From Rhodospirillaceae bacterium (lineage in GTDB: Bacteria; Pseudomonadota; Gammaproteobacteria; Steroidobacterales; Rariloculaceae), in the NCBI GenBank assembly GCA_037445815.1, contig JBBIJV010000001.1:8750-72749 (forward strand): DNA of 64,000 nucleotides, in the 5' to 3' direction. A model generated the notes under the pieces. It had not been told where the DNA came from. It searched no databases and saw nothing but the letters and a program-made list of their open reading frames with translations. The position numbers and the translations under genes are program-made. Shown piece after piece: positions 6,360 to 58,780 of the stretch (its first letter is position 1; every line of letters begins with the position of its first letter).

Positions 6360-6737
6360 ATGGGCGTAAAGACGTTTTCGCCGTTGCTCGGTGCGGTTTG
6401 GCTCGTTCTTCCGTTCGCCGCCGGAGCACATCATTCGCCGGCGATGTTCGATCCCTCGAAGCAGCTGACGCTGACGGGAACAGTCCGCGAGTTTCAGTGG
6501 ACGAACCCGCACAGCTACATCCAGCTCGTCGTGACATCCGACGACGGCGCGGAGCAAGAGTGGAGCCTCGAGATGGGCGCCAACGTCTATCTCTATAACT
6601 TAGGCTGGCGGCCGTCGACGGTGAAGACCGGCGACACGCTGACGGCCACCGTGATTGCGCTGCGCAACGGCGAACCCGGCGGGCTGCTCGTCGAGGCGCG
6701 GACGGCCGACGGCAAATCGCTGGGAGCGAACCCATGA
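6360..6737 (+). CDS. Small secreted HH-NPH protein (module copy a; probably the family annotated DUF6152)
   Basis: 125 aa. The signal peptide ends AAGA, followed by HHSPAMFD...TLTGTVREFQWTNPH. It is a paralog of 11459 (N-terminal domain), 27978..28412(-) and 57615..57995. Its stop overlaps the next start (ATGA at 6734-6737). Confidence 0.7.
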   Translation: MGVKTFSPLLGAVWLVLPFAAGAHHSPAMFDPSKQLTLTGTVREFQWTNPHSYIQLVVTSDDGAEQEWSLEMGANVYLYNLGWRPSTVKTGDTLTATVIALRNGEPGGLLVEARTADGKSLGANP

Positions 6738-7471
6738 ACGTCTCGCGAAGGATCGCGGTGCACGCTTCGTTTTGCGCCGCATTCGCCATGGCGTGCGGCG
6801 TCGCGCCGGCGGCGCTGCACGCGCAGTCGTTGCCGGACTGGAGCGGCTACTGGATCGGCGAAGGCCTCGAGGCGCAGATCTCGGGCTTTCCCGAAGGCGG
6901 CGACTACAAGCTGCTCGGGCAAACCGCGCCCTGGAACGAAGAAGGCCGCGCGCGCGTCACGGCGGCGAGCCGCCGCAGCGCGGATCAGAAAGCCAACGGC
7001 TGGGGCTATCCGCTGATGATGAACTCCGCCGCGCCGCTGCAGTTCCTGGTCACGCCGCGCGAGACGCTCATCGTCAACGTGTACCGCGACGTGCGGCACG
7101 TCTATACCGACGGCCGCGCCTTGCCAGCCGAAGAAGATCGTTGGCCGACGACGTGGGGCGAGTCCGTCGGCCGCTGGGAAGGCGACACGCTCGTCATCGA
7201 AACCGTTTCGGTCAGAAATCCGAACCGCTACTTCTTTTCGTCGCCGCCGTTGTCCGAGCAGGCGCGCTACGTCGAGCGTTTGCGCAAGGCGGGCCCGGAT
7301 CGCATCGAATCCGTCATGACGATCGAGGATCCCGTCACGCTCTCGGCGCCATGGGTGGTCAATCTCGCTTACACGCGCGCGGCGGGGCTCGATCGCATGA
7401 TCCACGACGATTACGACAACGACCGCAGCGTGGTCGAGAACGGCTTGTTCACGATCGTGCCGGACGAGTGA
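6734..7471 (+). CDS. Secreted partner protein of the HH-NPH module (copy a)
   Basis: 245 aa with a signal peptide. It carries the conserved blocks GESVGRWEGDTLVIETV and YVERLRKAGPDRIESVMTIEDPVTLSAPW, shared with 28420..29169(-), 58010..58780 and the C-terminal domain of 11459..12634. Confidence 0.65.
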   Translation: MNVSRRIAVHASFCAAFAMACGVAPAALHAQSLPDWSGYWIGEGLEAQISGFPEGGDYKLLGQTAPWNEEGRARVTAASRRSADQKANGWGYPLMMNSAAPLQFLVTPRETLIVNVYRDVRHVYTDGRALPAEEDRWPTTWGESVGRWEGDTLVIETVSVRNPNRYFFSSPPLSEQARYVERLRKAGPDRIESVMTIEDPVTLSAPWVVNLAYTRAAGLDRMIHDDYDNDRSVVENGLFTIVPDE

Positions 7472-7478
7472 GGTCGCG

Positions 7479-9911
7479 ATGAAAGAGTTTCGGTTGGCCG
7501 TGCGGCAGTTGCTGCGGTATCCGTCGTTCAGCGCGGTCGTCATCGCGACGCTCGCGCTCGGGCTCGGCGCGTGCACGCTAATCTTCAGCGTCGTGAACGG
7601 CGTGCTGCTTACGCCGTTGCCGTATCCCGAGCCCGATCGCATCGTACGCGTTCGCCAGATCGGCGAGACGGGCCTTGTCTCCGAGAACATCTCCGAGCCG
7701 AATTTTCGCGACTTGAAGGAGCAAACGCGATCGTTCGCGGTGCTCGCGCGTTACTCCGCCGGCGTTCAGCCCGTGTCGGGCGGCAGCGAGCCGACACGTG
7801 TTCAGACTGCGGATGTGTCGGCCGGCTTTCTCGACGTCGTCGGAATCCAACCGGTCGCCGGTCGAGCGTTTTCGCCGGACGATCATCGGGCCGGCGCCGC
7901 GCCGGCCGCGATCATCAGCTACGCGTATTGGCAACGCTATTTCGGCGGCGACCCCGCCTTCGGCGGGCGCACGCTCAAGATCGCCGATGAAACCTATTCG
8001 ATCGTCGGCGTCATGCCGCAGGGCTTCGACTACCCCGAGGGCACGGAGATCTGGATACCGGCCGAGCTGCGCGGCTACGTCGGATCGCGCACGGCACACG
8101 ACTTTCGCGCCGCGGGCCGGCTCGCGCCGGGCGTGTCGCTCGCGCAAGCCCAGGCGGACACGAGCGCCGTCGCGCGCCGCGTGAAGGCAGAACACGGTGG
8201 CGGCACTTGGATGTCCGATGCGGCCGTCACTCCACTCCATGACGCCATGGTCAGCAGCGCGCGGCCGGCCCTGCTCGTGCTCCTAGCCTCCGTCGCGCTG
8301 TTGTTCGTCGTCGCCGCCGCGAACGCTGCGAATCTGGTGCTCGCGCGGGCCATCGGCCGCGATCAAGAATTCGGCATTCGCTCCGCGCTCGGCGCCGGCT
8401 GGCGTCAGCTCGCGCGGCAGTTCTTCGCGGAGACGCTGCTCCTCTCCGGCGTCGCGGGACTGCTCGGCATCTTGTTTGCCGCGTGGGGCGTCAACGCGGT
8501 CGTGCGGCTCGCGGCCGACCGGCTGCCGCGGGCGGATTCGATCGGCATCGACTGGACCGTGCTCGGTTTCGCGCTGGCGCTCAGCGTGGCGACGGCAGGC
8601 GGCTTGAGCGTGCTGGCCGCGTGGCGCGCGAGCTCCGGAGGCGTCGCGCTGCGCTACAACCAGCGCACCGGCGGCGCTCGGCGCTCGCCGCTCATCGAGG
8701 GCCTCGTCGTCGCTCAAGTCGGCTTGGCGCTCCTGCTCGTCGTCGGCGCGGCGCTGCTCGGCCGCAGCTTCGTCGTGTTAACGAGCCTCGATCCCGGCTT
8801 TCGCACCGAGGGCCTCGTGTTCATGGACGTCTCCGCGCCGTGGCCCGGCGACCGCAGGGAGCTCGAGCCGTTGGTGCCCTTCTATGACGAGCTGATCGAG
8901 CGCTTGCGCGCGCTGCCCGGCGTCGACGCCGTCGCGGGTGTCTCGATTCCGCCCGGCGCGGGCGGCGGATGGAACGGCTCGGCATTCAGCCAAACGCATC
9001 CCGACGAGATTCGGAGCTTCGAGGACCTTGGCGCCGTCGCGGCCGATCCTACTCGCGTCTCACGCCTCACCGAATACCGTGTTGCGAGCGACGACTATTT
9101 CGCGGCTGTCGGCATTCGGCTGTTGCGCGGCCGAACCTTCGAGCGCACCGACGGCCCGGACGCCGAGCGTGTCGGCGTCGTGAGCCAGTCGCTCGCCGAG
9201 CGCCTGTGGCCGGGCCAAGATCCGCTCGGCAAGCTGGTTCAGTTCGGCGGAATGGACGGCGACCTCCGGCCCTCGACGGTCGTCGGCGTCGTCGCGGACG
9301 TGCGCGGCACCTTCGGCCTCGAACAGGAGCCAAGACCCACCTTCTATGCGCCTTACCGCCAACGGCCGTGGAGCCTCGTGATGTTCGAAATCGTCATTCG
9401 CACGGCCGACGCCGCGCGCATCATCCCGGCGGCGCGCGACATGGTGCAGCGCATGGACCCCGAGATGGCACCGCAGTTTTCGACGTCCGAGCAGACGTAC
9501 TCGGCCCAGCTCGCGCCGCGCCGGTTGAACCTCGTGTTGATCGGCGTGTTCGGCGGCACGGCGCTGTTGCTCGCGCTCGCGGGCATCTATGGCAGCATGG
9601 CGTTTCAAGTCGCGCGGCGCACACACGAGATCGGGGTGCGCATGGCGCTCGGGGCGAAGCCCGCGCGCGTCGTTTCGATGGTCGTGCGGCGCAGCTTGCT
9701 ACTCGCGGGGCTCGGCGTCGCCGCGGGCCTTGCGATCGCGCTAGCCGCCTCGCGCCTCGTGAGCTCGCTGTTGTACGGAATCGCACCGCACGACCCGATT
9801 TCGTACGCCGCCGGTGCCGCGCTCCTGCTACTCGCCGCCGTCGCAGCGGGACTACTGCCCGCCTTGCGCGCGGCGCGCGTCGATCCCGTGACCGCGCTTC
9901 GGAGCGAGTAA
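7479..9911 (+). CDS. MacB/FtsX-type ABC transporter permease with duplicated FtsX domains (ADOP-like orphan permease)
   Basis: 810 aa. The N terminus MKEFRLAVRQLLRYPSFSAVVIATLALGLGACTLIFSVVNGVLLTPLPYPEPDRIVRV, two periplasmic MacB-like domains and two C-terminal FtsX 4-TM bundles ending RAARVDPVTALRSE fit the family. It starts 7 nt after 7471 behind a GAGG. There is no adjacent ATPase gene. Confidence 0.85.
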   Translation: MKEFRLAVRQLLRYPSFSAVVIATLALGLGACTLIFSVVNGVLLTPLPYPEPDRIVRVRQIGETGLVSENISEPNFRDLKEQTRSFAVLARYSAGVQPVSGGSEPTRVQTADVSAGFLDVVGIQPVAGRAFSPDDHRAGAAPAAIISYAYWQRYFGGDPAFGGRTLKIADETYSIVGVMPQGFDYPEGTEIWIPAELRGYVGSRTAHDFRAAGRLAPGVSLAQAQADTSAVARRVKAEHGGGTWMSDAAVTPLHDAMVSSARPALLVLLASVALLFVVAAANAANLVLARAIGRDQEFGIRSALGAGWRQLARQFFAETLLLSGVAGLLGILFAAWGVNAVVRLAADRLPRADSIGIDWTVLGFALALSVATAGGLSVLAAWRASSGGVALRYNQRTGGARRSPLIEGLVVAQVGLALLLVVGAALLGRSFVVLTSLDPGFRTEGLVFMDVSAPWPGDRRELEPLVPFYDELIERLRALPGVDAVAGVSIPPGAGGGWNGSAFSQTHPDEIRSFEDLGAVAADPTRVSRLTEYRVASDDYFAAVGIRLLRGRTFERTDGPDAERVGVVSQSLAERLWPGQDPLGKLVQFGGMDGDLRPSTVVGVVADVRGTFGLEQEPRPTFYAPYRQRPWSLVMFEIVIRTADAARIIPAARDMVQRMDPEMAPQFSTSEQTYSAQLAPRRLNLVLIGVFGGTALLLALAGIYGSMAFQVARRTHEIGVRMALGAKPARVVSMVVRRSLLLAGLGVAAGLAIALAASRLVSSLLYGIAPHDPISYAAGAALLLLAAVAAGLLPALRAARVDPVTALRSE

Positions 9912-9959
9912 GCGCCGCACCGCGCGGCGCGCTGACCGGCTGCGCGCGAGCTGAGTCGC

Positions 9960-10575
9960 TGCTGTACGCGCTCGCGAGCGCACTTGATTCGAAGCACGTA
10001 CCAGATCGAGCTCGGCACGATCGCGCGCAAGATTCATTGGAAGATTGGAAGCGCGGCCGAGTCACGATCCACGCAGCGCGAGACGGTCGTCCGCACGAGG
10101 TAGTGGCTCGCGCAGCGATCGTGACGCTGCCCGTCTGCGTGTCTTAGCTGCCGCCCGAAGTACCGAACGGCGTGCGCTTTGTTCCCGCCCTCACGGCCAA
10201 AGAACAAGGGCTCGCGAGCGGCCCCGTGATCAAGGTCTTGTTGCGCTTTCGCGAGCCGTTCTCAGAGCAGGTCGATGACGCGCGTTACGCCGAGCGCTGC
10301 CTAGCCGATTTTCAAGGCGCCTATCTGCACGACTGGCAAGCAGATCCGTTCGCGTGCGGCGCACACAGCTACGCGGTCGCCGGCGGCGGCAACGCGCGCG
10401 AGCTGCCGGAACGGCCGCTCGCGAGCACGCTGTTCTTCACGGGCGAGGCGCCGGCACAGCCGGCGAATCCGGTACGGTCGCGGGCGCGCTCGACAGCGGC
10501 AAACGCGCCCTGGAGCAGCTGCTAGGGTCCGCTCGGAGGTCGGGTAGCAGCAGGCGGCGCGCTGCTACCGCGTAG
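9960..10575 (+). pseudogene. Flavin amine oxidase remnant: N-terminally truncated, with an in-frame stop and a frameshift
   Basis: Amine-oxidase motifs are spread over frames: AAIVTLPVCVS, then TAG at 10145-10147, then in the same frame LPPEV..VRFVPALTAKEQGL..GPVIKVLLRFREPF...DPFACGAHSYAV...LFFTGEA. The canonical C terminus GTVAGALDSGKRALEQLL appears only in a different frame (track ORF 10354..10575). The FAD-binding N-terminal half is absent, since the permease gene ends at 9911. Confidence 0.6.
10543..10569 (+). terminator. Hairpin downstream of the amine oxidase remnant
   Basis: GGTAGCAGC-aggcggcgc-GCTGCTACC forms a 9-bp perfect stem. A T-rich run (cttttctctcc) lies about 20 nt downstream, not adjacent. 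It may be the relic terminator of the decayed gene. Confidence 0.3.
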
Positions 10576-10664
10576 GTGTATGCGCTCTTTTCTCTCCGCC
10601 ACTTGCTCGCGAAAACGGGCGGTCCGGCCAGTCTTGCCGCTTGCATCGGTGCTTGTGGCCATTG

Positions 10665-10974
10665 TTAGAGCCCCACGTGCTTGCGAAGCATGCGCACGCC
10701 GAGCTTCAAGTCCAACGCGAACGCGCCGAGCCCCGGGACGCTGCGCTGCACGCGCATCGAATCGAGGGCGTTATCGGCGCAGCCGAAGTGCACGCACGCG
10801 AGCCGGCGCGCCTCTTCCGAAGGAATAGCCCCGGCCGCGCAACGCCTCCTCGGCCAGCTCGAGATGCGCCTCGAGCTCGCGCCGCAAGTCGTCGTCGGCG
10901 CGCCGGCCTCGTACCGTGCCCCATAGCCGCGAAGCCCATTCGCGAAGCTCCGGCCATGGCGCACGAGCACTCAT
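10665..10974 (-). pseudogene. N-terminal stub of an ADOP-type permease (frameshifted and truncated)
   Basis: ATG at 10974 overlaps the padR stop (ATGA). MSARAPWPELREWASRLWGTVRGRRADDDLRRELEAHLELAEEALRGRGY (track ORF 10771..11109) continues after a frameshift as PSEEARRLACVHFG...ALDLKLGVRMLRKHVGL-stop (track ORF 10665..10970). This is the usual leader of PadR-linked ADOP permeases, but only about 100 of about 800 codons remain. Confidence 0.55.
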
Positions 10975-11318
10975 GGCTGCGGCGCGAACAGCTGATCGAT
11001 GATCGACACCATGCGGTCCCAGCCGCGCTTCTCGTTGACGAGCCCGCGCCGGCCCGCGGCCGTGATGCGGTAGTAGCGCGCCTTGCGGTTGTTGCTCGTC
11101 ACACCCCACTCGCCTTTCACGAAGCCGCGCTGCTCGAGCCGCATCAGCGACGGATAGAGCGTGCCCATGTTGAGCTGCAGCGCGCCGCCGGACACTTGCC
11201 CGAGGCTCTCGGCGATCGCGTAGCCGTGCTGCGCGCCGAGCGACGCGAGCGTCTGAAGCACCATGAGATCGAGCGTGCCTTGCAGAACGCCCGCTTTGCT
11301 TCGAGCTTTAATGGTCAC
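10971..11318 (-). CDS. PadR family transcriptional regulator
   Basis: 115 aa. LQGTLDLMVLQTLASLGAQHGYAIAESLGQVSGGALQLNMGTLYPSLMRLEQRGFVKGEWGVTSNNRKARYYRITAAGRR is a textbook PadR winged helix. Confidence 0.9.
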   Translation of the reverse strand: MTIKARSKAGVLQGTLDLMVLQTLASLGAQHGYAIAESLGQVSGGALQLNMGTLYPSLMRLEQRGFVKGEWGVTSNNRKARYYRITAAGRRGLVNEKRGWDRMVSIIDQLFAPQP

Positions 11319-11458
11319 GCCAATAGAGTCAGTGTTCTTTGTTCGGACGTCAAATGGTGCATGGGTTCGCGGCGGCCGAAGCGCCTTTGGGGACCGTTGG
11401 CCGCGGCGCCGTTTGCTACTACCATGATCCGCGGCTGATCGCGCTTTCCGGAGGGAAT

Positions 11459-12634
11459 ATGACGCCTCGAAGCGGTTTGCTCGTAGCCGCGGCGCTCGTC
11501 GCGAGCCCCGCGGCCGCTCACCACGGAATCGGCACCTTCGACACGCGGCAAGAAATCACGCTCACGGGGACCGTGACCGGCGTCGATTTCGTGAACCCGC
11601 ACTCGTGGGTCTATCTCGACGTGAAGGGCGACGACGGCACGATCCAGCCGTGGCGCTGCGAGATGCGCTCGGCGACGACGCTGCGCCGCTCGGGCTGGAC
11701 GCCCGAGATGTTCGAGCCGGGCAAGCCGGTGAAGATCACGGCCGCGCCCGATCGCGTCGACCCGCGCTCCTGCTATCTATCGACGATCGTGTTTGCGGAC
11801 GGCAGATCTGCCGACCGCTACGGACAGCTTTCCGCAGCGCCGGCGCCGCGCGTCTCCGCCGAGCGCCCGACGCGGCTACCCTCGGGCGAGCCGAACCTCT
11901 CGGGCGACTGGGCACCCGAGCAGCTCGTGATGACGGACCCGCGCGGCCGCGGCGGCGCGCTCGTGCCGCTCTCTCGTGCGGACAGTTTCGAGCCGGGCGC
12001 CAGCACGGCCGAGAACGCGCGCCAATACCGCACGCGCGACGTAACGCTCACGCCGGCCGGCCAAGTGGCGGCGGACGCGTTCGAGACGTACAACCCGGAG
12101 CACAACCCGCGCTTGCGCTGCGAGACGACGAGCATCATTTTCGACTGGACCTATGACGGCGCCGTCAATCGCATCACGCAAACGCCCGACACCATCACGC
12201 TCGAGTACGGCCAGCTCGGCTTCACGCGCACGATCCACATGGATCAGACACGGCACCCGGAGAACGTCGAGCCGAGCCGCGGCGGACACTCGATAGGCCG
12301 CTGGGACGGCGACGTGCTCGTCGTCGACACCGTCGGGTTCGCGCCCGGCGTGTTGTCGCCGCCGGTGATGCATACGGACCAGCTGCACGTCGTCGAGCGG
12401 TTCTGGGTCGATCCGGAGGGACCTACGCTGATGCGCAGCTACGCGGCCCAGGACCCCGTCTACTTCACGAGCACCTACAGCGGCAGCGACATGCTGTCGC
12501 TCGCCGACGTGCCGTATTCGCCGGACGAGTGCAACGGCGACCTCACGTTCCTCGACTACTCGAAGGAAGCGCAGCCGCGGCCCGCGCCCGAAGCGCCGGC
12601 ACCGGCGAAGCCCTGGTGGAAATTCTGGGACTGA
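11459..12634 (+). CDS. Fusion protein: HH-NPH domain + partner domain (module copy b)
   Basis: The start is set at ATG 11459 (GGAGGGA upstream) inside track ORF 11339..12634. The signal peptide ends PAAA. Then comes HHGIGTFD..ITLTGTVTGVDFVNPH..GWTPEMFEPGKPVKI (small-protein domain), a Pro/Ala linker, then RLRCETTSI...GGHSIGRWDGDVLVVDTVGF...HVVERFWVDPEGPTLM (partner domain). Confidence 0.7.
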   Translation: MTPRSGLLVAAALVASPAAAHHGIGTFDTRQEITLTGTVTGVDFVNPHSWVYLDVKGDDGTIQPWRCEMRSATTLRRSGWTPEMFEPGKPVKITAAPDRVDPRSCYLSTIVFADGRSADRYGQLSAAPAPRVSAERPTRLPSGEPNLSGDWAPEQLVMTDPRGRGGALVPLSRADSFEPGASTAENARQYRTRDVTLTPAGQVAADAFETYNPEHNPRLRCETTSIIFDWTYDGAVNRITQTPDTITLEYGQLGFTRTIHMDQTRHPENVEPSRGGHSIGRWDGDVLVVDTVGFAPGVLSPPVMHTDQLHVVERFWVDPEGPTLMRSYAAQDPVYFTSTYSGSDMLSLADVPYSPDECNGDLTFLDYSKEAQPRPAPEAPAPAKPWWKFWD

Positions 12635-12906: not shown

Positions 12907-14094
12907 CTACGCGGCCTTGCGCCCCCACAATGCCTTGGTCGCGAGCTTCGCGCCGTCGGACAGCGCCTTGAGCTTCGCCCAAGCGATCTGGGGGTGGCAG
13001 CGGAGGCCGAGGCCGCAGTCGGTGGAGGCGATGACGTTCTCGCGGCCGACCATGCGCGCGAATCGCTGAATGCGATCCGCGACGAGCCGCGGGTGCTCGA
13101 TCAGCGACGTTGAGTGCGTCACGACGCCCGGTGCGAGGATCTTGCCCTCGGGCAGCTTCGTCGTTTCCCAAAGCGCTGCCTCGTGCTCGTGCCGTACGTT
13201 CGCGGCTTCGAACAGATACGTCTGTGCTTTCACAGAGAGCATCACATCCACGATGTCGGGCAGCGGCAGGTCGCGCGAGTGCGGCCCGTGCCAGCTGCCC
13301 CAGCAGAGGTGATAGCGGATCTGCTCTTCTGGGATGTTGCGCAGCGCGTGGTTGAGTGCCTCGCAACGCATCCGGCAATACTTGCGATAGCCGTCGAGCC
13401 CCATCTCGAGGCCGATGCGATCCCAGAGCGCGCCGAGCCACGCGTCGTCCACCTGCACTTGGAAGCCGGCGTTCGCGATGCCCTCGTATTCCACGCGCAG
13501 CGCTTCGGCGAGCGCGTACACGTATTCCTCGTCGTTCTTGTAGAAATCGTTCTTGCGGCCCGGCTCGACGCTGAGCGGCGCCGTGGTCGTGAGGAACGCG
13601 TCGGACACAGGATTCTTGCCGAGTGCGGCCTTCAGCGTCGCGATCTCGCGCTCGAGCGCCTTGCCGCCCTTGTACGTGATGGGCCCGGTGCAGACCCAGT
13701 CGTCGATCGCCGCGGTGCTCTCCTTTGCGCCTTCGGGGACCTTCGGCGCCGACCCCGATTGCTCGAACAGCGTGCCTCGCTCGAGATTCACTCGGTAAAA
13801 GTCGGCGAACTCGACCCAATCGGCGCTCGACATCAGCAGCGTGCCGAGGCCGCCACGCTGGCCAGCGGGCTCGAAGCCGCCGAGCCGAGCGCTGATGTAC
13901 TGCGTCCAGTGGCCGCCTTTCGTGAGCTCGCCTTCGTTGATGAGGTCGATGCCCGCTTGGCGCTGAAACTCGACGACGGCCGCGACCGCATCGCGGAGCC
14001 GCTGGTCGCCGACGTCGGGATGCGCCCAGACGTCCTCGGGTGCCGGCAGTGCGCCGACGTGAGTCGTCAGAATTGCGTTCGTGCTGCGTCGCAT
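12907..14094 (-). CDS. Cobalamin-independent methionine synthase (MetE C-terminal domain)-like zinc alkyltransferase family protein
   Basis: The start is set at ATG 14094 (MRRSTNAILTTHVGALP). MetE-like blocks are present: IDLINEGELTK, QVQVDDAW, IRYHLCWGSWHGPH (His/Cys Zn ligands) and ASTDCGLG (Cys ligand). It lies 19 nt downstream of the TonB receptor gene. Confidence 0.8.
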   Translation of the reverse strand: MRRSTNAILTTHVGALPAPEDVWAHPDVGDQRLRDAVAAVVEFQRQAGIDLINEGELTKGGHWTQYISARLGGFEPAGQRGGLGTLLMSSADWVEFADFYRVNLERGTLFEQSGSAPKVPEGAKESTAAIDDWVCTGPITYKGGKALEREIATLKAALGKNPVSDAFLTTTAPLSVEPGRKNDFYKNDEEYVYALAEALRVEYEGIANAGFQVQVDDAWLGALWDRIGLEMGLDGYRKYCRMRCEALNHALRNIPEEQIRYHLCWGSWHGPHSRDLPLPDIVDVMLSVKAQTYLFEAANVRHEHEAALWETTKLPEGKILAPGVVTHSTSLIEHPRLVADRIQRFARMVGRENVIASTDCGLGLRCHPQIAWAKLKALSDGAKLATKALWGRKAA

Positions 14095-14113
14095 GGCGCT
14101 GATCTCCGGTTGA

Positions 14114-16432
14114 TTAGAACGCACGCCGCAGCGTGACATACCATTCGCGCGGCCAACCCGGCCGTCCGGTGCCGGCGAAGTAGGGCGGGAACGGCCGGCC
14201 GAACTGGCTCTCATAGTAGAACTCGTCAGTCAGATTCGTGCCGATCAGCGCCGCGCTCCAATCATCGTTCGGCGACGCCCATTGCAGTCGGAAGCTCACG
14301 AGGCTCACGTCGTCGATGAAGCTCGTCGGCGCGTTGATTGCGTCGGTGTAGAACTCGGAGCGGTACGCATAGTCGAGGCGCGGGGTCAGCGAGCCGCCGT
14401 GCGGCAGGTCGAACGCATACTGCAAGCCGATCGTGAGCTTCTCGTCCGGCGTGTAGACCGTCGTCATGTCCGGCGTGATGCCGGTGCGCGGATCGACGCG
14501 CTCATACTGAAAATCCAACACGCCGAGCGCGGCGTCGATGCGCAAGTGGTCGTTCGGCAGGTACTCGAGCTCGACTTCGACGCCCTGGATCTCGGCGTCT
14601 CCGACGTTCGCCGACATCGTGCACGGCGCGCCCGGGAACGGCGAGAACGCGTCACACGAGAGCAGCGTGAGCTGCACTTCGTCGTAGGAGTTCGCGAACG
14701 CCGCAACGTTGAAGCGCAAACGATCGCCGGCGAGGTGCGTCTTGAGTCCGATCTCGAAGGCATCGAGCGTTTCGGGGTCGTACTGCTGCACCTGCGAGAC
14801 GAAGAACGGCCGCGGGTTCACGCCGCCGCCCTTGTAGCCGGTCGACACCTGTCCGTAGAGGAGCACGCGCTCGGCCGCGCGGAAGTCGAGTACGACACGG
14901 TAGTCGGTGCGGTCGCCGCTGTACTCGCCCGTGAAGTTCACGAGCGCGCCGAGCAGCGGATGCGGATCGCCGTTGAAATCCCAGCGGTTGAACGTGAAGC
15001 GCTTGAGATCGTCGGTATAGCGCACAGCGGCCGTGATTCTCGTGCGGTCGGTGACGTCGAACACCGCATGCGCGTACACCGATTTCGATTCGGTTTTTAC
15101 CGGGTCGCGGAACAGAATTTCGAGATCGAGCCCGCCGCCGCCGGGCGCGAGCCCGCCCGGAATGTTCACTCGGCCTTCCGATACGCCGTCCGCGTCGTAA
15201 AAGAAGAGTCCAACGGTCCAGTCCGCGAGGCCGGTGTCTCCGGACACGCGAACCTCCTGCGTCCACTGCTCGTGCGTGAGACGCCAGTATTGGTCGAGAA
15301 CAGTCGCGGGCGACGCGTCGACGCCGTTCGAGAACGGCACTCTCGACTCGCGATAGCCGGTGATCGACTCGAGCGTCAACGAATCGCCGAGCTCGGCGCG
15401 CAGGAGGTTCGAGATGCCGCGCGAATCGAGCGGCGTCGTATCCGGCATCGCGAACGCGTCGGTCGGCGTGCCGGTTGGTTGGCTCAAGTACGTCTCGTAG
15501 TTCGTGTAGCTTTCGGGGCCCGTGATGTAGTTCGCCCCGCCGGTCCAGAGCGGCGACTGGAATTGCAGCTTGCTGGCGGGGTTCTCGGAGCGATCTTCGG
15601 TCGCGTCGACGATCAGGGTGTTCTCGACGCGATCGCCGGGCGTCCACAGCAGCGTCGCGCGCGCCGTCGTCACGTCCTGGCCGCCTTCGCTGCCGATGAT
15701 GCAGTCCTCGCGGAGCCGCTGCGTGCCGCCGGCCGTGTTGCCGGTAGCGCAAGCGTAATCCAGGCGGTCGACATAGCCGTCGCGGTCGATCGCTGCCGCG
15801 GCGATCCGTGCGTAGAGTTTGTCCTCGACGAGCGGCAGGTTCGCCGCGCCGCGCGCCATGATTCGATCGAACGAGCCGAAGCCGGCCTCGGCATACCCGC
15901 CCGCCTCGGGGCCCGGACGTGTCGAAAACAGCTTGATCGCGCCGCCAATCGAGTTCTTGCCGGCCAACGTGCCCTGCGGTCCGCGGAGGATTTCGACGCG
16001 GTCCGTGTCGAGCAGCTCGAACACGGCGCCGGTCAACACGCCGTAGTAGACGTCGTCGACATACATGCCGACGCCGGGCTCGACTGCGAAGTGAGGATCG
16101 GCCTGCCCGACGCCGCGAATGAAAACGCCGGCCATCTGCCCGAACCCGCCGGCACCCCGCGACAGCTGTACGTTCGGCGCGAAGCTCGACGCGTGCGCGA
16201 CGTCGGTCGCGTTGCGTCGCTCGAGCATGTCGCCGGAGAGCGCCGAGATCGCGATCGGCGTCTCCTGCGCGGACTGCGTGCGGAATTGCGCAGTGACGAT
16301 GATCTCCTCGAGCGCGCTCGGCTCGTCCTGGGCGTGAGCATTCGCGCCGAGCAACAATGCATGCGAAACGGCCGCTGCGATTGGCAGTCGTCGTACGCGG
16401 CCACTCACTCGATATCCCTTGCTGTGTCTCAT
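14114..16432 (-). CDS. TonB-dependent receptor
   Basis: 772 aa. It has a signal peptide, a TonB box/plug (LEEIIVTAQFRTQSAQETPIAISALSGDMLERR...VQLSRGAGG..GVFIRGVG), and a beta-barrel ending in the C-terminal aromatic residue (YVTLRRAF). Confidence 0.9.
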   Translation of the reverse strand: MRHSKGYRVSGRVRRLPIAAAVSHALLLGANAHAQDEPSALEEIIVTAQFRTQSAQETPIAISALSGDMLERRNATDVAHASSFAPNVQLSRGAGGFGQMAGVFIRGVGQADPHFAVEPGVGMYVDDVYYGVLTGAVFELLDTDRVEILRGPQGTLAGKNSIGGAIKLFSTRPGPEAGGYAEAGFGSFDRIMARGAANLPLVEDKLYARIAAAAIDRDGYVDRLDYACATGNTAGGTQRLREDCIIGSEGGQDVTTARATLLWTPGDRVENTLIVDATEDRSENPASKLQFQSPLWTGGANYITGPESYTNYETYLSQPTGTPTDAFAMPDTTPLDSRGISNLLRAELGDSLTLESITGYRESRVPFSNGVDASPATVLDQYWRLTHEQWTQEVRVSGDTGLADWTVGLFFYDADGVSEGRVNIPGGLAPGGGGLDLEILFRDPVKTESKSVYAHAVFDVTDRTRITAAVRYTDDLKRFTFNRWDFNGDPHPLLGALVNFTGEYSGDRTDYRVVLDFRAAERVLLYGQVSTGYKGGGVNPRPFFVSQVQQYDPETLDAFEIGLKTHLAGDRLRFNVAAFANSYDEVQLTLLSCDAFSPFPGAPCTMSANVGDAEIQGVEVELEYLPNDHLRIDAALGVLDFQYERVDPRTGITPDMTTVYTPDEKLTIGLQYAFDLPHGGSLTPRLDYAYRSEFYTDAINAPTSFIDDVSLVSFRLQWASPNDDWSAALIGTNLTDEFYYESQFGRPFPPYFAGTGRPGWPREWYVTLRRAF

Positions 16433-20682: not shown

Positions 20683-21885
20683 ATGAGAGTTGCACGCTCC
20701 ATTCTGTGCACCGCGGTGTTGTGGGTGATCACGTGCGCGCCCGGCCGTGGCCAACCGGCGCAGATCGGCGTGCCGGTGCCGCCGCTCGGCGACGGGCCGT
20801 GGGTGTTCGATACGGCCGAGCAGCACAAAGTACGCGTCAGCGTCGTAACGAAGGGCCTCTCGCATCCCTGGGCCATCGCGTTCTTGCCCGACGGCGCCAT
20901 GCTGATCACCGAGCGCCCCGGTCGCCTGCGGTTCGTGCGCGACGGCGTGCTCGACCCCCAGCCGATTTCCGGCTTGCCCCCGATTCGCACCGACGGCAAC
21001 GGCGGCCTCATGGACGTTGCGCTGCATCCCGAGTTCGAGCGGAACGCTCTCGTCTATCTCACGTATACCAAACCCGTCGGCAACGGCATGGGCACTCCGG
21101 CGCTGATGCGCGGCCGGCTCGAAGGCCACGCCCTCGCCGACGTGGAGGATCTCGTCGTCCCCGACTACTACGAGGGTAACTCGGGCTTGAACGGCCGCGT
21201 CGTTTTCGGCCGCGACGGCAAGGTCTACATGTCGACCGGGGGCCGGTCGCAGAACGACATCGCGAACGTCGCGCAAGATCGCATGAGCCTGCGCGGCAAG
21301 ATCCTGCGACTCAACGACGACGGCTCCGTGCCGCCCGACAATCCATTCGTGGGCCGCCATGGCCATCGGCCGGAGATCTATTCGCTGGGGCACCGCAACC
21401 AGCTCGGCCTCATCGTCCATCCGACGACCGGCGAGATCTGGCAGCACGAAAACGGCCCGCAAGGCGGCGACGAGCTCAACGTCATTCTGCCCGGGCGCGA
21501 TTACGGTTGGCCCGAGGTGAGCTTCGGGCGCGACTACTCGGGCCGCCGCGTCTCCGAGCACCCGACGAGAGAGGGCATCGAGCCGCCGCTCGTCGTGTGG
21601 GTTCCCGCGATCGCCGTCGCCGGAATGGCCGTGTACACCGGCGAGCGGTTCCCGGCGTGGAAGGGCAACGTGTTCGTCGGCGCGATGATGGAGGGCCGGA
21701 TCCCGGGCACGGGCCACCTCCAGCGCGTGGTCTTCAATCAAAACATGGAAGAGATTCGCCGCGAGTCGATGTTGCGGGAGCTCAGGCAACGCATCCGAGA
21801 GGTGCGCCAAGGGCCCGACGAGCTGCTCTACTTGCTCACGGACGAGGACGACGGCGCGCTGCTGCGCCTCGAGCCGGCGCCCTGA
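20683..21885 (+). CDS. PQQ-dependent sugar (glucose/sorbosone) dehydrogenase, soluble beta-propeller type
   Basis: 400 aa with a signal peptide. It carries LSHPWAIAFLPDGAMLITERPGRLRFV, GGLMDVALHPEF, HRNQLGLIVHPTTGEIWQHENGPQGGDELN and GRDYGWPEVSFG. Confidence 0.85.
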   Translation: MRVARSILCTAVLWVITCAPGRGQPAQIGVPVPPLGDGPWVFDTAEQHKVRVSVVTKGLSHPWAIAFLPDGAMLITERPGRLRFVRDGVLDPQPISGLPPIRTDGNGGLMDVALHPEFERNALVYLTYTKPVGNGMGTPALMRGRLEGHALADVEDLVVPDYYEGNSGLNGRVVFGRDGKVYMSTGGRSQNDIANVAQDRMSLRGKILRLNDDGSVPPDNPFVGRHGHRPEIYSLGHRNQLGLIVHPTTGEIWQHENGPQGGDELNVILPGRDYGWPEVSFGRDYSGRRVSEHPTREGIEPPLVVWVPAIAVAGMAVYTGERFPAWKGNVFVGAMMEGRIPGTGHLQRVVFNQNMEEIRRESMLRELRQRIREVRQGPDELLYLLTDEDDGALLRLEPAP

Positions 21886-27977: not shown

Positions 27978-28412
27978 TTAGCCGCCCCGCCCGCCGAAGT
28001 TGACGACCTCGCTGCCGTCCGGAAACGTGGCGCGCTGCAACGTGCCGCCCGGCTCGCCGCTCTTCAGCGGCCAGACGACGACCTTGACCTTCTGCCCAGG
28101 CTCGAAAGTGCGCTTCGTCCAGCCGCGCCGGCCGAGAAAATTCGGGCTCATGCCTTCGAGGCCCCAACGCGTCGTCGAGCCGTCGGCGTTCGTGACGTTG
28201 ATCCACAAGAACGTGTGCGGGTTCGTCCACTGGAACTCCACCACCTCGCCCTCGAGCTCCTTGTTCGTCTGCATGTCGAACACGCTGAACGAGTGATGCG
28301 CCTGCGCGTTCGCGGTCCACGCGGCGAGCGCGAGGATGGCCACCACGCTGCCGAGCACCATGGCGACGTCACGCAGCGAGCGAGTGCGGCTGCGGCGATT
28401 CGACGTTTTCAT
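27978..28412 (-). CDS. Small secreted HH-NPH protein (module copy c)
   Basis: 144 aa. The signal peptide ends ANAQA, followed by HHSFSVFD..ELEGEVVEFQWTNPH...GWTKRTFEPGQKVKVVVWPLKSGEPGG. It starts 7 nt after the partner gene behind a GAGGAG. Confidence 0.7.
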   Translation of the reverse strand: MKTSNRRSRTRSLRDVAMVLGSVVAILALAAWTANAQAHHSFSVFDMQTNKELEGEVVEFQWTNPHTFLWINVTNADGSTTRWGLEGMSPNFLGRRGWTKRTFEPGQKVKVVVWPLKSGEPGGTLQRATFPDGSEVVNFGGRGG

Positions 28413-28419
28413 GCGAACA

Positions 28420-29169
28420 TCACTCCTCGAAGCTCAGATCGATGCCGGCCTTGCCGTCATCGGTCGTGAAGTTCCTGTTGTTCTGCTGGCAGACGTACTC
28501 GGCGAGCGTCCAGTCGCGGTGGCGGCCGTACGCGGCCGTGCGCGTCCATGGCTTCGTGAGCGCGTCCGGATCGTGAATCGTCGTTTGCACCTCGAGCCGG
28601 TCCGGCGCGGCGAGGCGAAAGCGCTCGACGATGCGCATCTTCTCGCTGTGGCGTTGGCCCTGATTGCCGAGCGACGTGTCGGTCGTGAAGCCGACCGTGT
28701 CGACGACGAGCGTGTCGCCTTCCCAGTGGCCGATCGAGTGGCCGTTGAACGTGAGGTCCGGATCCTCGGGATGCTCGCGGCCGTCCGTGAAGATCTGGCG
28801 CCATTGCGAGTACGCCTCGATCAGGATCGTCACCTTGCCTGGAGTGAACAAGATCTCGATCGGATACGGCTGCGTCATGATCGCGGGCATGCCGTTCGGC
28901 ACGCAGTTCGCTGCGGGGCCGTCCTCGATCTCGCCGCGCTGGACGGCGGCCTGGTACTCCTGAAGTTTCGCCGCGTATTCCGGCGTGAACGCGGGCGGCT
29001 CGCCGGCGCCGCGCGGACCGCCGCCGAACGTGATCTCCCACAAGCCACCGAAGTCGGGCAGCTTGGCGATGGATTCCCAGGTGTCGCCCTGCGGGCCTGA
29101 TTTTTGCGCGGCGAGCGGCGCGGCGGTAACGAAGGCAATGACGGCAATCGACCAGGCGTAGCGCAGCAT
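28420..29169 (-). CDS. Secreted partner protein of the HH-NPH module (copy c)
   Basis: 249 aa with a signal peptide. It carries AANCVPNGMP, NGHSIGHWEGDTLVVDTVGF and IVERFRLAAPDRLEVQTTIHDPDALTKPW. Confidence 0.7.
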   Translation of the reverse strand: MLRYAWSIAVIAFVTAAPLAAQKSGPQGDTWESIAKLPDFGGLWEITFGGGPRGAGEPPAFTPEYAAKLQEYQAAVQRGEIEDGPAANCVPNGMPAIMTQPYPIEILFTPGKVTILIEAYSQWRQIFTDGREHPEDPDLTFNGHSIGHWEGDTLVVDTVGFTTDTSLGNQGQRHSEKMRIVERFRLAAPDRLEVQTTIHDPDALTKPWTRTAAYGRHRDWTLAEYVCQQNNRNFTTDDGKAGIDLSFEE

Positions 29170-52958: not shown

Positions 52959-54149
52959 TCAGTCGGCCCACGGCAGCCAAGGAAGGAACACGGCGAGCGC
53001 CGTGAAGCGCTCCCCGAGCCAATGCCAAGCCGTGTGACCCACGATCACGGCGATCACGACGCCGCCTACACGCGCGTCGACGTAGCGGAACAAGACGTTC
53101 AAACCGGGCACCACGAGCAAGAGAACGAGCAATTGCCCGAGCTCGATGCCGACGTTGAACGCGAGCAGCGAGGTCAGCACGTGAGCGCCGGCGAACTGCA
53201 GCGTGTTTTGCAGCGCGAACGAGAAGCCGAAGCCGTGCACGAGCCCGAAGCCGAACGCGATCGGCCAGCGTGATCGCGGCGCGGCGAAAAGGACGTTCTC
53301 GATGGCCATGTAGGCGATCGACAGCGCGATCAGCGTCTCGACGAGCGGCGGGAACCAAAAGCCGGCCGGCGCCAAGCCGTAAGCCGAGAAGATCAACGTG
53401 ACGGAGTGGCCGGCCGTGAACGCCGTGACGATCCAGACGAGCGCGCGAAGCTGCCGCCGGAACGGCACGACGAGGCAGAGCAGGAACAAGAGGTGATCCG
53501 CGCCGTCCAGGATGTGCTCGAAGCCCTGCACGAGGAACCGCAGCATCGATTGATGCCAGCGCGGGTCGAGCGCGACCAATCCGGAGTCTCCTTCGACCTG
53601 GAACACGCGCTCGACGCCGCCGGCGCCGATGAAGCGCACGGCGTTCACGACGCGCATGCCGAGCCGCTCCGTGCGCGCGCGCAGCGAGAACAACGAGGTT
53701 GAGTCTTGGATCGGCGCTGCGAATTCCACGTCGAGCAGCGCCTGCTGCCACGGCAGGTCGAGGCCCGCCGGCAGCGGCGGCGCCCGTAGGTGCGCGAGCG
53801 CAGAGTCGTACTCGGCGAACGACCGATCGCTCGGGATCGACGCGCGCACGTTGACGATATCGAGGCGCAAGCGCCGGCCGCCTTCATAGAGCTCGAGGTT
53901 GTCGGCGAGCCAAAGCTCTGCGGCGTCGCGAAGCTGCGGCCCGGCGCGCGGCACGTCGAGATAGCCGGGCCCGACGGTCGGGAACGTGATGTCCTGCATC
54001 GCGTCGAGAGGCGCGCGGACGAGAAGGCGCACGCGATCGCCGTCGGGCCGCACGATCATGCGGACCGTCACGTCGCTAGGAACCTCGTGCGCACGCGCCG
54101 CCGCCAGAGCCGTGGCTGCGAGAGCAGCGAGCATGACCAGGCGCCGCAA
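52959..54149 (-). CDS. HupE/UreJ-family membrane protein with an extra N-terminal periplasmic domain
   Basis: The C-terminal ~190 aa, GFEHILDGADHLLFLLCLV...FTAGHSVTL...GLVHGFGFS...FNVGIELGQL, is HupE/UreJ-like. It is preceded by ~200 aa of beta-rich sequence that begins right after the signal peptide, ...LAAARA/HEVPSD. The start is TTG 54149 (giving MRRLVMLAALAATALAAARA) or ATG 54134; the track ORF extends further into shadow. Confidence 0.7.
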   Translation of the reverse strand: MRRLVMLAALAATALAAARAHEVPSDVTVRMIVRPDGDRVRLLVRAPLDAMQDITFPTVGPGYLDVPRAGPQLRDAAELWLADNLELYEGGRRLRLDIVNVRASIPSDRSFAEYDSALAHLRAPPLPAGLDLPWQQALLDVEFAAPIQDSTSLFSLRARTERLGMRVVNAVRFIGAGGVERVFQVEGDSGLVALDPRWHQSMLRFLVQGFEHILDGADHLLFLLCLVVPFRRQLRALVWIVTAFTAGHSVTLIFSAYGLAPAGFWFPPLVETLIALSIAYMAIENVLFAAPRSRWPIAFGFGLVHGFGFSFALQNTLQFAGAHVLTSLLAFNVGIELGQLLVLLLVVPGLNVLFRYVDARVGGVVIAVIVGHTAWHWLGERFTALAVFLPWLPWAD

Positions 54150-54313
54150 GTCGTCGTGCCCCGTTCTCGTTCTTCGGAGGAGGCAATTTCCGCTATTATC
54201 GGTAGCGAGAACAAGCCCTGGGAGCTGCGTCGAACGGCCGGGGCGGCGGACACGGATGCCGCAAGAACAACGCAGGAAGCCGTTGTCGAGAGCACTTGCC
54301 GGGGGGGGTAGCC

Positions 54314-55552
54314 ATGACTCGTCGAGCCGGATTTCTGGTCTTTGCGTTGAGCGGCGTTCTCGTCGCAGCGTGCAACGATGCGGCGCCACCCCCTGCGCCC
54401 AGCGGCTCGGCGGGCGCGGCGCCCGCCGCTAGCGCGACACCGGCGGCTTCCGCCGCGCTGTCGCCGGAGTTCGGCGCATCCGGCGTCGCGCCGCGCTTCG
54501 AGGTCGATCCATTCTGGCCGAAGCCGCTGCCGAACCACTGGCTGCTCGGCTCGACGATCGGCGTTTCGGTCGATTCGCGCGATCACGTTTGGATCATTCA
54601 TCGGCAACAGTCCCTGAACGCGCAAACCGAAGCGAGCGCCGGCACGAACACGCCGGCCGGCGCGTGCTGCACGGCGGCGCCGCCCGTCATCGAGCTCGAC
54701 GCCGCGGGCAACGTCGTCGCCTCGTGGGGCGGGCCCGGCGAAGGCTACGACTGGCCCGCGTCGAACCACGGCATCACCGTCGATCACATGGACAACGTGT
54801 GGATCGGCGGCAACGACGTCAAAGACGCGCACGTTCTGAAGTTCTCGCGCTCCGGCCAGTTCCTCCTACAGCTCGGCAAGCCCGAGCAGAACCAGGGCAG
54901 CAACGATCCCGTGAACTTTTGGCGCGTCGCCGAGATCTCGATCGACGCCGAAGCAAACGAGGCGTACATCGCCGACGGCTACGGCAACAAGCGCGTCGTC
55001 GTCATCGACGCGAGCACGGGCGAGCGCAAGCGCTACTGGGGCGCCTACGGCAACCGGCCCGACGACGCGGATCTCGGCTTGTACGACCCGGCCGCGCCGC
55101 CGGCACAGCAGTTCCGCAACCCCGTGCACTGCGCCGAGCCGTCACGCGACGGCTTCGTCTACGTCTGCGACCGCGTCAACGACCGCATTCAGGTGTTCCG
55201 CAAGGACGGCACGTACGTCAGCGAGCTGCGCGTCGCGCCCGAGACGCGCGGAGCCGGCTCCGTGTGGGACATCGCGCTGTCGCACGATCCCGGGCAGGCG
55301 TACATCTACCTCGCCGACGGCCTGAACGAGCGCGTCTACATCATTCATCGCGAATCGATGCAGATTCTCACGAGCTTCGGGGATGGCGGCCGGCAGCCCG
55401 GGCAATTCTTCGGCGTTCATAGCATCGCCGTCGATTCGCAGGGCAACGTCTACACCACCGAGACCTACGAAGGTAAGCGCGTGCAGAAGTTCGTCTTCCG
55501 CGGCCTCGGGCCCATCCCGGGCGACTCGCAAGGCGCGCTGTGGCCGCGCTGA
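54314..55552 (+). CDS. NHL-repeat six-bladed beta-propeller lipoprotein
   Basis: ATG 54314 lies inside track ORF 54296..55552. The lipobox is LVAAC. Repeated propeller blades are present (DHVWIIH, DNVWIGG, EAYIADGYGNKRVVVID, GFVYVCDRVNDRIQVF, QAYIYLADGLNERVYII, GNVYTTETYEGKRVQKF). Confidence 0.7.
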   Translation: MTRRAGFLVFALSGVLVAACNDAAPPPAPSGSAGAAPAASATPAASAALSPEFGASGVAPRFEVDPFWPKPLPNHWLLGSTIGVSVDSRDHVWIIHRQQSLNAQTEASAGTNTPAGACCTAAPPVIELDAAGNVVASWGGPGEGYDWPASNHGITVDHMDNVWIGGNDVKDAHVLKFSRSGQFLLQLGKPEQNQGSNDPVNFWRVAEISIDAEANEAYIADGYGNKRVVVIDASTGERKRYWGAYGNRPDDADLGLYDPAAPPAQQFRNPVHCAEPSRDGFVYVCDRVNDRIQVFRKDGTYVSELRVAPETRGAGSVWDIALSHDPGQAYIYLADGLNERVYIIHRESMQILTSFGDGGRQPGQFFGVHSIAVDSQGNVYTTETYEGKRVQKFVFRGLGPIPGDSQGALWPR

Positions 55553-58009: not shown

Positions 58010-58780
58010 ATGCGCTCCTTGCTGCTCGCGTGCTTGGCGCCGGCCGCTTTCTTGGCACCCGCCGAGGCGCAGTCGCCCGAGGGTCACGGCATCGCCGGCT
58101 TCTGGTCGTTGACGGGCCCGATGGTGCCGCGCCGCCCGCCGATACCCACCGAGACGGAGCTGATGGCCCACTTTCCCGACGAGACGATCGTGCTCGCCGA
58201 TGCCGGCGCGACGGAGTTTCCGCCGGGGGACTACGGCGGCCTCGCGATCCGCGAGCCGCTGGTCGAAGCGGCGAAGGGCTACGATCCGGAGGAACAGACT
58301 ACGGTCTCCCTCACCTGCCGGCCGCCGGGCTTGATCTACTCGATGCAGGGCCCGTTCCCGATCGAAATCTTCGAGGGCCGCGATCTCATCGTCATCAAAC
58401 TCGAGTACTTCGACCTCGTGCGCGTCATCTTCATGAACGAGACCGAGCATCCCGACGACTGGCCGCATTCGCAGGCGGGACACTCCATCGGCCGCTGGGA
58501 TGGCGACACGCTCGTCGTCGACACGGTGAAGCTCACGGCCGGCACACTGTTCAACAACGGCGTCGACCACACCGAGGACGTTCACTTGATCGAGCGCTTT
58601 CGGCTCGCCGATCCGAATCGGCTCATCGTCACGCAGCAGTTCGAGGATCCGGGCTCGTTCGACGGCGTCGCGGCCCGCGTGCTGTCGTTCACGCGCGGCG
58701 ACGATCATGTCTACCCCTACGACTGCGACCCGGCTTACGGTCTCTCGATCGACTCGCGGCAGGGGCCCGAGGCGCGCTGA
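58010..58780 (+). CDS. Secreted partner protein of the HH-NPH module (copy d)
   Basis: 256 aa with a signal peptide. It carries SLTCRPPGLI, AGHSIGRWDGDTLVVDTVKL and LIERFRLADPNRLIVTQQFEDP. It lies 14 nt after the small gene. Confidence 0.7.
   Translation: MRSLLLACLAPAAFLAPAEAQSPEGHGIAGFWSLTGPMVPRRPPIPTETELMAHFPDETIVLADAGATEFPPGDYGGLAIREPLVEAAKGYDPEEQTTVSLTCRPPGLIYSMQGPFPIEIFEGRDLIVIKLEYFDLVRVIFMNETEHPDDWPHSQAGHSIGRWDGDTLVVDTVKLTAGTLFNNGVDHTEDVHLIERFRLADPNRLIVTQQFEDPGSFDGVAARVLSFTRGDDHVYPYDCDPAYGLSIDSRQGPEAR

Follow-up and report, generated by a model that had tools for sequence, protein, structure and literature searches.

A gene in a 64,000-nucleotide stretch of the Rhodospirillaceae bacterium assembly GCA_037445815.1 (contig JBBIJV010000001.1, positions 8,750 to 72,749 of the forward strand; the whole stretch is referred to here as the window, and coordinates are those of the window unless another locus is named) joins in a single reading frame two protein domains that elsewhere are usually encoded by neighbouring genes. 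The fused gene, at 11459-12634 on the forward strand, translates as one uninterrupted open reading frame (ORF) of 391 codons plus a stop, in which a domain of the Pfam family DUF6152 (abbreviated D) is followed by a domain of a second family, the partner (Pn). This fusion is real, conserved and ancient, and functional coupling of DUF6152 with its partner is well supported by the adjacency of their genes across phyla and by their co-divergence. The explanation of the whole that we favour, with a confidence a little better than even, is that the fused gene represents the covalent, secreted, two-domain periplasmic form of a widespread two-gene module.

Architecture of the fused gene

A preliminary description of this DNA had read the gene as a single signal peptide leading into a domain with His-His and Asn-Pro-His motifs (HH-NPH), then a Pro/Ala-rich linker and a partner domain, and the 391-residue ORF bears out this order in full. 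All of the motifs quoted there (HHGIGTFD, VNPH, GWTPEMFEPGKPVKI, the linker SAAPAPRVSAERPTRLPSGEP, RLRCETT, GGHSIGRWDGDVLVVDTVGF and VVERFWVDPEGP) are present in the translation. The partner domain was also said to lack the signal peptide of its free-standing relatives, and in the alignment a Pro/Ala/Arg-rich linker does occupy that place. The features of the gene are as follows.

11450..11455, forward strand: Shine-Dalgarno sequence GGAGGG, 3 nt before the ATG at 11459, read from the sequence
11459..11518, forward strand: Sec signal peptide, residues 1-20 (MTPRSGLLVAAALVASPAAA), with a hydrophobic core and an AxA site; predicted signal peptidase I cut after AAA
11519..11824, forward strand: DUF6152 domain, residues 21-122, OB (oligonucleotide/oligosaccharide-binding) fold, from Pfam PF19649, hhalign, AlphaFold2 (AF2) and Foldseek
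11519-11524, forward strand: His21-His22, predicted mature N-terminus
11594-11602, forward strand: Asn46-Pro47-His48
11660-11662, forward strand: Glu68
11825..11887, forward strand: inter-domain linker, residues 123-143 (QLSAAPAPRVSAERPTRLPSG), standing where the partner signal peptide would be
11888..12553, forward strand: partner (Pn) domain, residues 144-365, modelled as a FABP-like calycin barrel, from tblastn, hhalign and the model
12284-12331, forward strand: GHSIGRWDGDVLVVDT hairpin, residues 276-291, within the partner domain
12554..12634, forward strand: C-terminal Pro/Ala-rich spacer, KPWWKFWD motif and stop codon

The position of the Shine-Dalgarno sequence favours 11459 as the start over an upstream TTG at 11339, and the N-termini of homologues agree with this choice. 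Neither a sigma-70-like promoter nor an intrinsic terminator was found around the fused gene. The Trp-rich end motif, KPWWKFW(D/E), occurs in approximately 60% of 52 fused homologues, preceded by a Pro/Ala-rich spacer of variable length, and is not found in free partners; it might serve for anchoring or docking.

The fusion is conserved among homologues

Full-length fused homologues of approximately 385-400 residues, with 57-100% identity, were recovered from JGI, ENA, NCBI and Logan assemblies as at least 120 clusters at 90% identity, a count that is a lower bound. The fused protein is itself already in public databases, labelled 'DUF6152 family protein' or 'hypothetical protein'. Divergent representatives of the fused form (P0156, P0237 and P0249) carry the clade motifs HHGxGTFD, RCEMR, DRYGQ and GEPNIxGDWAxEQ. 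All credible fusions fall into a single D-Pn clade, and the fusion apparently arose once.

The preliminary description had allowed that a stop codon and restart at about 11830-11900 might be hidden by an error, and a frameshift or mis-assembly at this point, joining separate DUF6152 and partner genes, would be one explanation of the ORF. The databases do contain such cases: an apparent reverse-order (Pn-D) fusion, P0212, and a short chimera, P0165, look frameshifted or mis-joined. Both were set aside as probable sequencing or assembly artefacts, and we accordingly make no claim that fusion happened independently in the two orders. For the gene in the window, the evidence speaks strongly against an error. 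The same unbroken architecture recurs in all of the independent clusters counted above, down to the lowest identity among them. Between the conserved DRYGQ and RLPSGEPN motifs the linker differs in both sequence and length among the 52 aligned fused homologues, and does so by whole-codon indels only. In frame, GC content at third codon positions (GC3) remains within 0.80-1.0 from one side of the junction to the other, with a value of 0.87 in the linker, and the other two frames at the junction hold no signal peptide and no stop-restart arrangement. An independent assembly of SRR11582143, in the form of a Logan contig, also contains an identical fused protein. An artefact is thus effectively refuted already, and we consider its probability negligible; an indel in this one genome, if there were any, would leave the conserved fused clade unaffected.

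Split pairs in the window and co-divergence of the two families

When both halves of the fusion were compared with the window by tblastn, exactly three further copies of each were found, always adjoining, as the preliminary description had noted in reporting three split versions in the same segment.

6360..6737, forward strand: D1, DUF6152 gene, 125 residues (PF19649, E 9.5e-29); its stop codon overlaps the P1 start (ATGA)
6734..7471, forward strand: P1, partner gene, 245 residues, own signal peptide (LHA/Q cut), from tblastn and alignment
28420..29169, reverse strand: P2, partner gene, 249 residues, own signal peptide (LAA/Q cut), upstream of D2
27978..28412, reverse strand: D2, DUF6152 gene, 144 residues (PF19649, E 5.4e-30), 7 nt downstream of P2
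57615..57995, forward strand: D3, DUF6152 gene, 126 residues (PF19649, E 2.6e-23)
58010..58780, forward strand: P3, partner gene, 256 residues, own signal peptide (AEA/Q cut), 14 nt downstream of D3

The intergenic gaps of the three pairs are -4, 7 and 14 nt, and each of P1 to P3 starts with a hydrophobic signal peptide ending AxA. The second pair has the reversed gene order, partner first, a feature absent from the preliminary description. The N-terminal domain of the fusion matches D3, D2 and D1 with E-values of 7e-20, 1e-17 and 2e-16, and its C-terminal domain matches P3, P2 and P1 with E-values of 2e-17, 8e-12 and 2e-4 (tblastn), so that P3 is the best match in the window and the ranking D3>D2>D1 parallels P3>P2>P1. 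This similarity answers a further doubt raised in the preliminary description, namely that the C-terminal domain might be unrelated to the free partners; the comparison of profiles by hhalign, given below, agrees.

A search beyond the window for partner loci, restricted to a single genome of each species, yielded at least 598, of which the best 80 were analysed; these belong to Steroidobacteraceae and other Gammaproteobacteria, Sphingomonadaceae, Caulobacteraceae, Terriglobia and Bryobacteraceae, and Sphingobium xanthum NL9 and Aurantiacibacter gilvus DGU6, both cultured, are among the sphingomonad carriers. Among 100 partner genes lying off contig edges in these 80 genomes of different species, 56% have a DUF6152 gene with them: 27 in the order partner-DUF6152, 22 in the order DUF6152-partner, five divergent and two fused. 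In the opposite direction, 74 of the 86 assessable DUF6152 genes (86%) in a metagenome sample, drawn by a DNA pattern for HHSFAMFD, have a partner no more than 400 bp away. The dependence is asymmetric, DUF6152 relying on its partner more heavily than the reverse. Adjacency is seen in Gammaproteobacteria, Alphaproteobacteria and Acidobacteriota, and in both gene orders.

The two families also diverge together. A mirror-tree comparison of 61 D/Pn pairs gave a Mantel r of 0.60, which none of 2000 permutations reached, and in 29 of the 61 pairs D and Pn have the same nearest neighbour. Co-divergence and the matching ranks within the window imply that the pairs have been inherited and duplicated as units. 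By the Marcotte/Enright criteria the case is of the Rosetta-stone kind: the components exist separately elsewhere (in the three window pairs and in hundreds more), the composite ORF is real, and evidence of linkage comes from independent sources.

The partner domain resembles a FABP-like barrel

The C-terminal 266 residues of the fusion have no match in Pfam or NCBIfam. Likewise, no family was found for the window partners in either database, and a comparison of 85 family members with Pfam gave none, apart from one spurious match. A profile of these 85 free partners, built without the fusion, nevertheless recognises the C-terminal domain of the fusion at an hhalign probability of 99.6% (E 1.6e-24, residues 215-345). 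Searched against 1.84 billion cluster representatives, the partner profile returned 14,241 matches at E<=1e-3 (50%-identity clusters), 8,316 of them at E<=1e-10.

An AF2 model of the free partner P2, computed with the 85 sequences, reached a predicted local distance difference test score (pLDDT) of 89 and a predicted template modelling score (pTM) of 0.84. In Foldseek this model matched CRABP2, FABP4 and CRBP at probability 1.0 (E 4.5e-4; target-normalised template modelling score 0.5-0.64), and further matches were nitrophorins, Tp0751 and NanoLuc. On the strength of the model, the partner is assigned to FABP-like calycin barrels, a similarity at the level of fold only. The assignment came from the separate P2 model, since the model of the whole fusion yields only weak OB-fold matches; within the latter the core of the partner domain has a pLDDT of 75-95.

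Conserved positions of the partner comprise a GxW strand, a Cys pair, an Arg, GxSxGxWEGDTLVV (a W-E/D-G hairpin), ER and DP. The first of these, the GxW strand, reads NLSGDW in the fusion (GDW, residues 149-151) and PDWSGYW, DFGGLW or IAGFW in free partners. Cys221 and Cys358 of the fusion are likely to form a disulfide, to judge from the sequence, and the conserved Cys pairs together with the signal peptides back a periplasmic location. Residues 154-229 of the fusion (11918-12145) hold an insertion of approximately 40 residues, specific to the fused clade, relative to free partners. This segment contains many invariant residues (EQxVMTDPxGRxGxLVP), yet AF2 gives it a pLDDT below 50; it may take on an ordered structure only once in contact with another component.

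The 150 top partner representatives include 118 single-domain proteins, 24 Pn-Pn tandems and seven D-Pn fusions or fragments thereof. The Pn-Pn tandem fusions (for example P0121, P0124 and P0126) are approximately 450-530 residues long. Arrays of partner genes alone are common in Bryobacteraceae loci, one of which (L066) has four in succession.

DUF6152 and its His-His terminus

The N-terminal part of the fusion matches DUF6152 (PF19649) over residues 13-99 with an E-value of 2e-23 and 82.7 bits, the cut-off of the family being 27 bits, and hhalign against the DUF6152 profile gives 99.8% over residues 7-122. D1 to D3 score 82-104 bits. In the AF2 model of the fusion, residues 30-120 have a pLDDT of 90-95, and the Foldseek matches of this model in the PDB are OB folds (the LysRS anticodon-binding domain and SSB), although these are weak (E approximately 1e-3). 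None of the three profiles (fusion, partner or DUF6152) had a significant match when searched against PDB sequences.

In a set of 63 DUF6152 sequences from Gammaproteobacteria, Alphaproteobacteria and Acidobacteriota, the signal peptide ends in AxA immediately before His-His in every case, and the sole residues invariant in all 63 are these two histidines (His1 and His2) and the Pro-His of the NPH motif. Cleavage directly before His-His is predicted by the -3/-1 rule. The alignment of the 61 pairs shows His1, His2 and Pro-His in 61 of 61, a Glu (E68 in the fusion) in 59 and an Asp in 55, whereas Cys67 and Cys105 are confined to the fused clade. His48 of the NPH motif and Glu68 are candidates for further metal ligands; residues 19-22 are modelled at a pLDDT below 50.

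Histidine-brace proteins and related secreted metalloproteins are marked by an invariant N-terminal His that cleavage of a signal peptide exposes (PMC10952591), and the same signature has been used to find four new bacterial families, all four of which bound Ni or Cu; DUF6152 is not among them (PMC12537917). That His1, His2 and the NPH His never vary, at the very point where the signal peptide is predicted to be cut, is most readily explained by a metal-chelating N-terminus. From the pattern of conservation, DUF6152 most likely chelates a transition metal through its free His-His terminus, His48 and Glu68.

Genomic neighbourhood

Genes around the fused gene in the window are listed below; a gene for an AraC regulator is also nearby.

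10971-11318, reverse strand: PadR regulator, divergent from the fused gene
12907-14214, reverse strand: MetE-like gene
14114-16432, reverse strand: TonB-dependent receptor

In a relative with 77-89% amino-acid identity (locus L006), D1, P1 and the fusion are contiguous, the stop codon of P1 overlaps the start of the fusion, and further pairs lie within 10 kb. The split pair and the fused gene there are apparently in one operon. Since the fused gene lies directly downstream of a split pair in this relative, fused and split forms coexist and do not replace each other. In the window, P1 and the fusion are separated by a MacB/FtsX ('ADOP'-type) permease gene (7479-9911), an amine oxidase remnant (9956-10524) and the PadR gene; the remnant covers only residues 184-434 of the 439-residue gene in the relative. 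Comparison of 7479-11318 in the window with 6878-9122 in L006 indicates an insertion or rearrangement.

No further gene was consistently linked to the pairs in the 80 loci and six long contigs, which thus gave no conserved operon context. PQQ (pyrroloquinoline quinone) dehydrogenases, dehydrogenases of the soluble glucose/sorbosone (GSDH) type and TonB-dependent receptors were considered as defining partners and rejected, their recurrence not exceeding a level that could be due to chance in these genomes. PQQ-dependent or GSDH-type dehydrogenases immediately follow the fused gene or lie close to it at L002 (11352-14331), at L007 (9288-10967) and in the window (20683-21885), which may be a weak enrichment or chance. 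The only uncharacterised recurrent neighbour of the pairs is a membrane protein of family DUF6644 (PF20349, E 5e-15; for example L014, 5447-5983, reverse strand), which adjoins D/Pn pairs in six of the 80 loci, often in two copies.

Comparison with known systems

We compared DUF6152 with the N-terminal-His metalloproteins LPMOs, CopC, PmoF1, YcnI (DUF1775), DUF4198, DUF6702 and Ang-1/Ang-2. Like these, DUF6152 is extracytoplasmic, with an invariant His1 that cleavage is predicted to expose and with a second invariant His and a carboxylate available. Unlike them, it has a predicted OB fold in place of the beta-sandwich or Ig-like fold of LPMO, CopC, YcnI, DUF4198 and Ang-1, and it ends in His-His and not in a single His; its metal binding is predicted from sequence. 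It is tied to a calycin barrel, whereas the N-terminal-His families are tied to permeases, TonB/Nik genes or carbohydrate-binding modules. Several of the N-terminal-His families were domains of unknown function until tested (PMC10952591, PMC12537917). At 52959-54389 (reverse strand) the window also encodes a HupE/UreJ_2 permease (PF13795, E 1e-42) with an exported N-terminal domain of approximately 190 residues, the predicted mature N-terminus of which is His (LAAARA/HEVPSD, the slash marking the cut). An architecture of this kind, 'Ang-1 anglerase + HupE/UreJ-2', was recently shown to bind Cu/Ni (PMC12537917).

The periplasmic Cu(I)/Ag(I) chaperones CusF and SilF resemble DUF6152 in being small periplasmic OB-type barrels with a His-containing N-terminal region and an alignable order of elements. 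The CusF ligands His36, Met47, Met49 and Trp44 are not kept as a motif in DUF6152, which also lacks a CusCBA context.

The partner shares with intracellular lipid-binding proteins (iLBPs: FABP, CRABP and CRBP), lipocalins, nitrophorins and Tp0751 the barrel, a helix after strand A, the GxW of the first strand and the W-D/E-G hairpin. Unlike iLBPs, it is approximately 220 residues long as against approximately 135, bacterial, secreted and predicted to be disulfide-bonded, and it has an invariant set of its own (R, GxSxGxWEGD, ER and DP). No sequence homology to iLBP or calycin families was detectable in Pfam, including its lipocalin families, or among PDB sequences.

In the periplasmic heterodimers VtrA/VtrC and ToxR/ToxS, one protein forms a calycin-like barrel and the neighbouring gene encodes the protein that completes it. 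Their lipocalin-like barrel binds a small ligand together with the second protein; the partners are membrane-anchored transcription regulators. They provide a precedent for an obligate periplasmic complex encoded by adjacent genes, with no homology implied, and differ from the DUF6152/partner module in having neither an OB fold nor an N-terminal His. ZinT/YodA, which binds metal in the periplasm, has both a calycin-like domain and an N-terminus rich in His; it is a single domain, carries its metal site on the calycin domain and has no OB domain. It was not among the top 50 Foldseek matches of the P2 model.

Proposed mechanism and alternative explanations

In the mechanism that we propose for the two-gene module, cleavage of the signal peptide would expose a free His-His N-terminus on the OB-fold DUF6152 domain, and this terminus, the NPH histidine and the conserved Glu would form a mononuclear, histidine-brace-like metal site that uses the alpha-amine and could hold Cu, Ni or Zn. 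FABP-like calycin barrels are the usual scaffold for a small, often hydrophobic, ligand, and the disulfide-stabilised barrel of the partner would hold such a ligand. The module usually takes the form of a pair of adjacent, translationally coupled genes; in the fused form a short, variable and flexible linker has replaced the partner signal peptide, so that a single export event delivers both domains. In the most likely working model the metal domain would dock on the barrel, and the pair, whether carrier or enzyme, would bind or chemically modify a small periplasmic ligand. Paralogous pairs, many per genome, may be tuned to different ligands. A physical 1:1 complex of DUF6152 and its partner is plausible.

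Several observations weigh against this proposal. With respect to the complex, 44 of the 100 partner genes have no DUF6152 gene within 400 bp, and this proportion, together with the frequency of partner tandems, implies that the barrel can work alone and that a 1:1 arrangement is not general. The AF2 model of the fusion has a pTM of 0.48, and no inter-domain interface was seen in it. With respect to the metal site, all histidine-brace proteins known to us are beta-sandwiches and not OB folds, and no genes for Cu, Ni or Zn homeostasis occur in the examined neighbourhoods of the pairs (80 loci and six long contigs). The neighbours themselves are heterogeneous over the 80 loci (TonB-dependent receptors in 14, PQQ dehydrogenases in seven, DUF6644 in six and NHL proteins in four). 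Homology of DUF6152 to CusF is unproven: the similarity appears weak, with an hhalign probability of 66% when the signal peptide is included and 22% for mature CusF (the sequence used matched PDB 2vb2), against 0.5% and 7% for the controls SSB and CspA. Finally, literature searches for DUF6152 and PF19649 returned no paper mentioning the family and no experimental data on either family. The preliminary description had presented the fusion as Rosetta-stone evidence. Its case for functional coupling holds, and is strengthened by adjacency across phyla in both gene orders and by co-divergence, but its claim of 'direct evidence' of contact, 'probably 1:1', exceeds the data, given the low pTM, the partners without DUF6152 and the existence of both Pn-Pn and DUF6152 tandems.

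The fusion could be real and the coupling loose, the two proteins acting in the same pathway, through hand-off of a metal or ligand or through a shared regulon, with no stable specific complex; fusion would then only secure co-export and co-localisation. We hold this to be possible though improbable. A flexible and variable linker and the low confidence of the inter-domain arrangement are in keeping with it, as are the many partner genes without DUF6152, the partner-only and DUF6152-only tandems (the latter as at L134), and the fused gene beside split pairs, apparently in one operon, in the relative. The co-divergence of paralogous pairs, by contrast, fits specific contacts, although co-inheritance could give part of it, and the retention of an adjacent partner by 86% of D genes across phyla also counts against loose coupling. 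At L134 itself (metagenome contig Ga0170475_117798303, 1.6 kb long), four DUF6152 genes lie in direct tandem at 38-1622 with no partner between them.

Less probable again, and in our view decidedly unlikely, is that the module is no metalloprotein at all but shuttles hydrophobic or amphipathic substrates in the periplasm, as it might downstream of TonB-dependent receptors. His-His would then serve otherwise, for instance as a ligand to a bound tetrapyrrole, as a pH sensor or in docking. The calycin/FABP fold is a classic ligand carrier, some of its relatives (nitrophorins) bind haem, and the expansion of paralogues is like that of substrate-specific uptake components. TonB-dependent receptors do lie near two of the four window copies as well as in the 14 loci counted above, but this frequency (approximately 17%) is, by a rough estimate of the baseline, about what chance would give in these receptor-rich genomes, and no conserved transporter partner was seen among the loci examined. 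The invariance of His1, His2 and the NPH His at the cleavage site fits metal chelation (PMC12537917) better than a shuttle.

Significance

The searchable literature describes neither the two families nor their pairing. Each fold on its own is familiar; what is new is the combination, in which a predicted N-terminal-His site on an OB fold is tied to a secreted FABP-like barrel. The partner family, with more than 14,000 clusters and no Pfam model, is uncatalogued as a family, and the fusion, the linkage in both directions and the co-divergence join two abundant soil-bacterial families of no assigned function. The His-His at the cleavage site offers a concrete and cheap hypothesis, metal binding by an OB fold, and the fusion, as a natural single chain, lends itself to structural and biochemical work and to the search for ligands.

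The boldest interpretation, which we rate as rather unlikely, is that DUF6152 would be the first OB fold with an N-terminal metal centre of the histidine-brace type and would form, with its barrel partner, a new and widespread class of periplasmic metalloproteins built from two subunits and carried by sphingomonads, Steroidobacteraceae-like Gammaproteobacteria and soil Acidobacteriota. The barrel would then present the metal with a small organic substrate, either to be captured or to undergo redox chemistry. Confirmation of the metal site would add a fold and a two-component architecture that are new among N-terminal-His metal centres.

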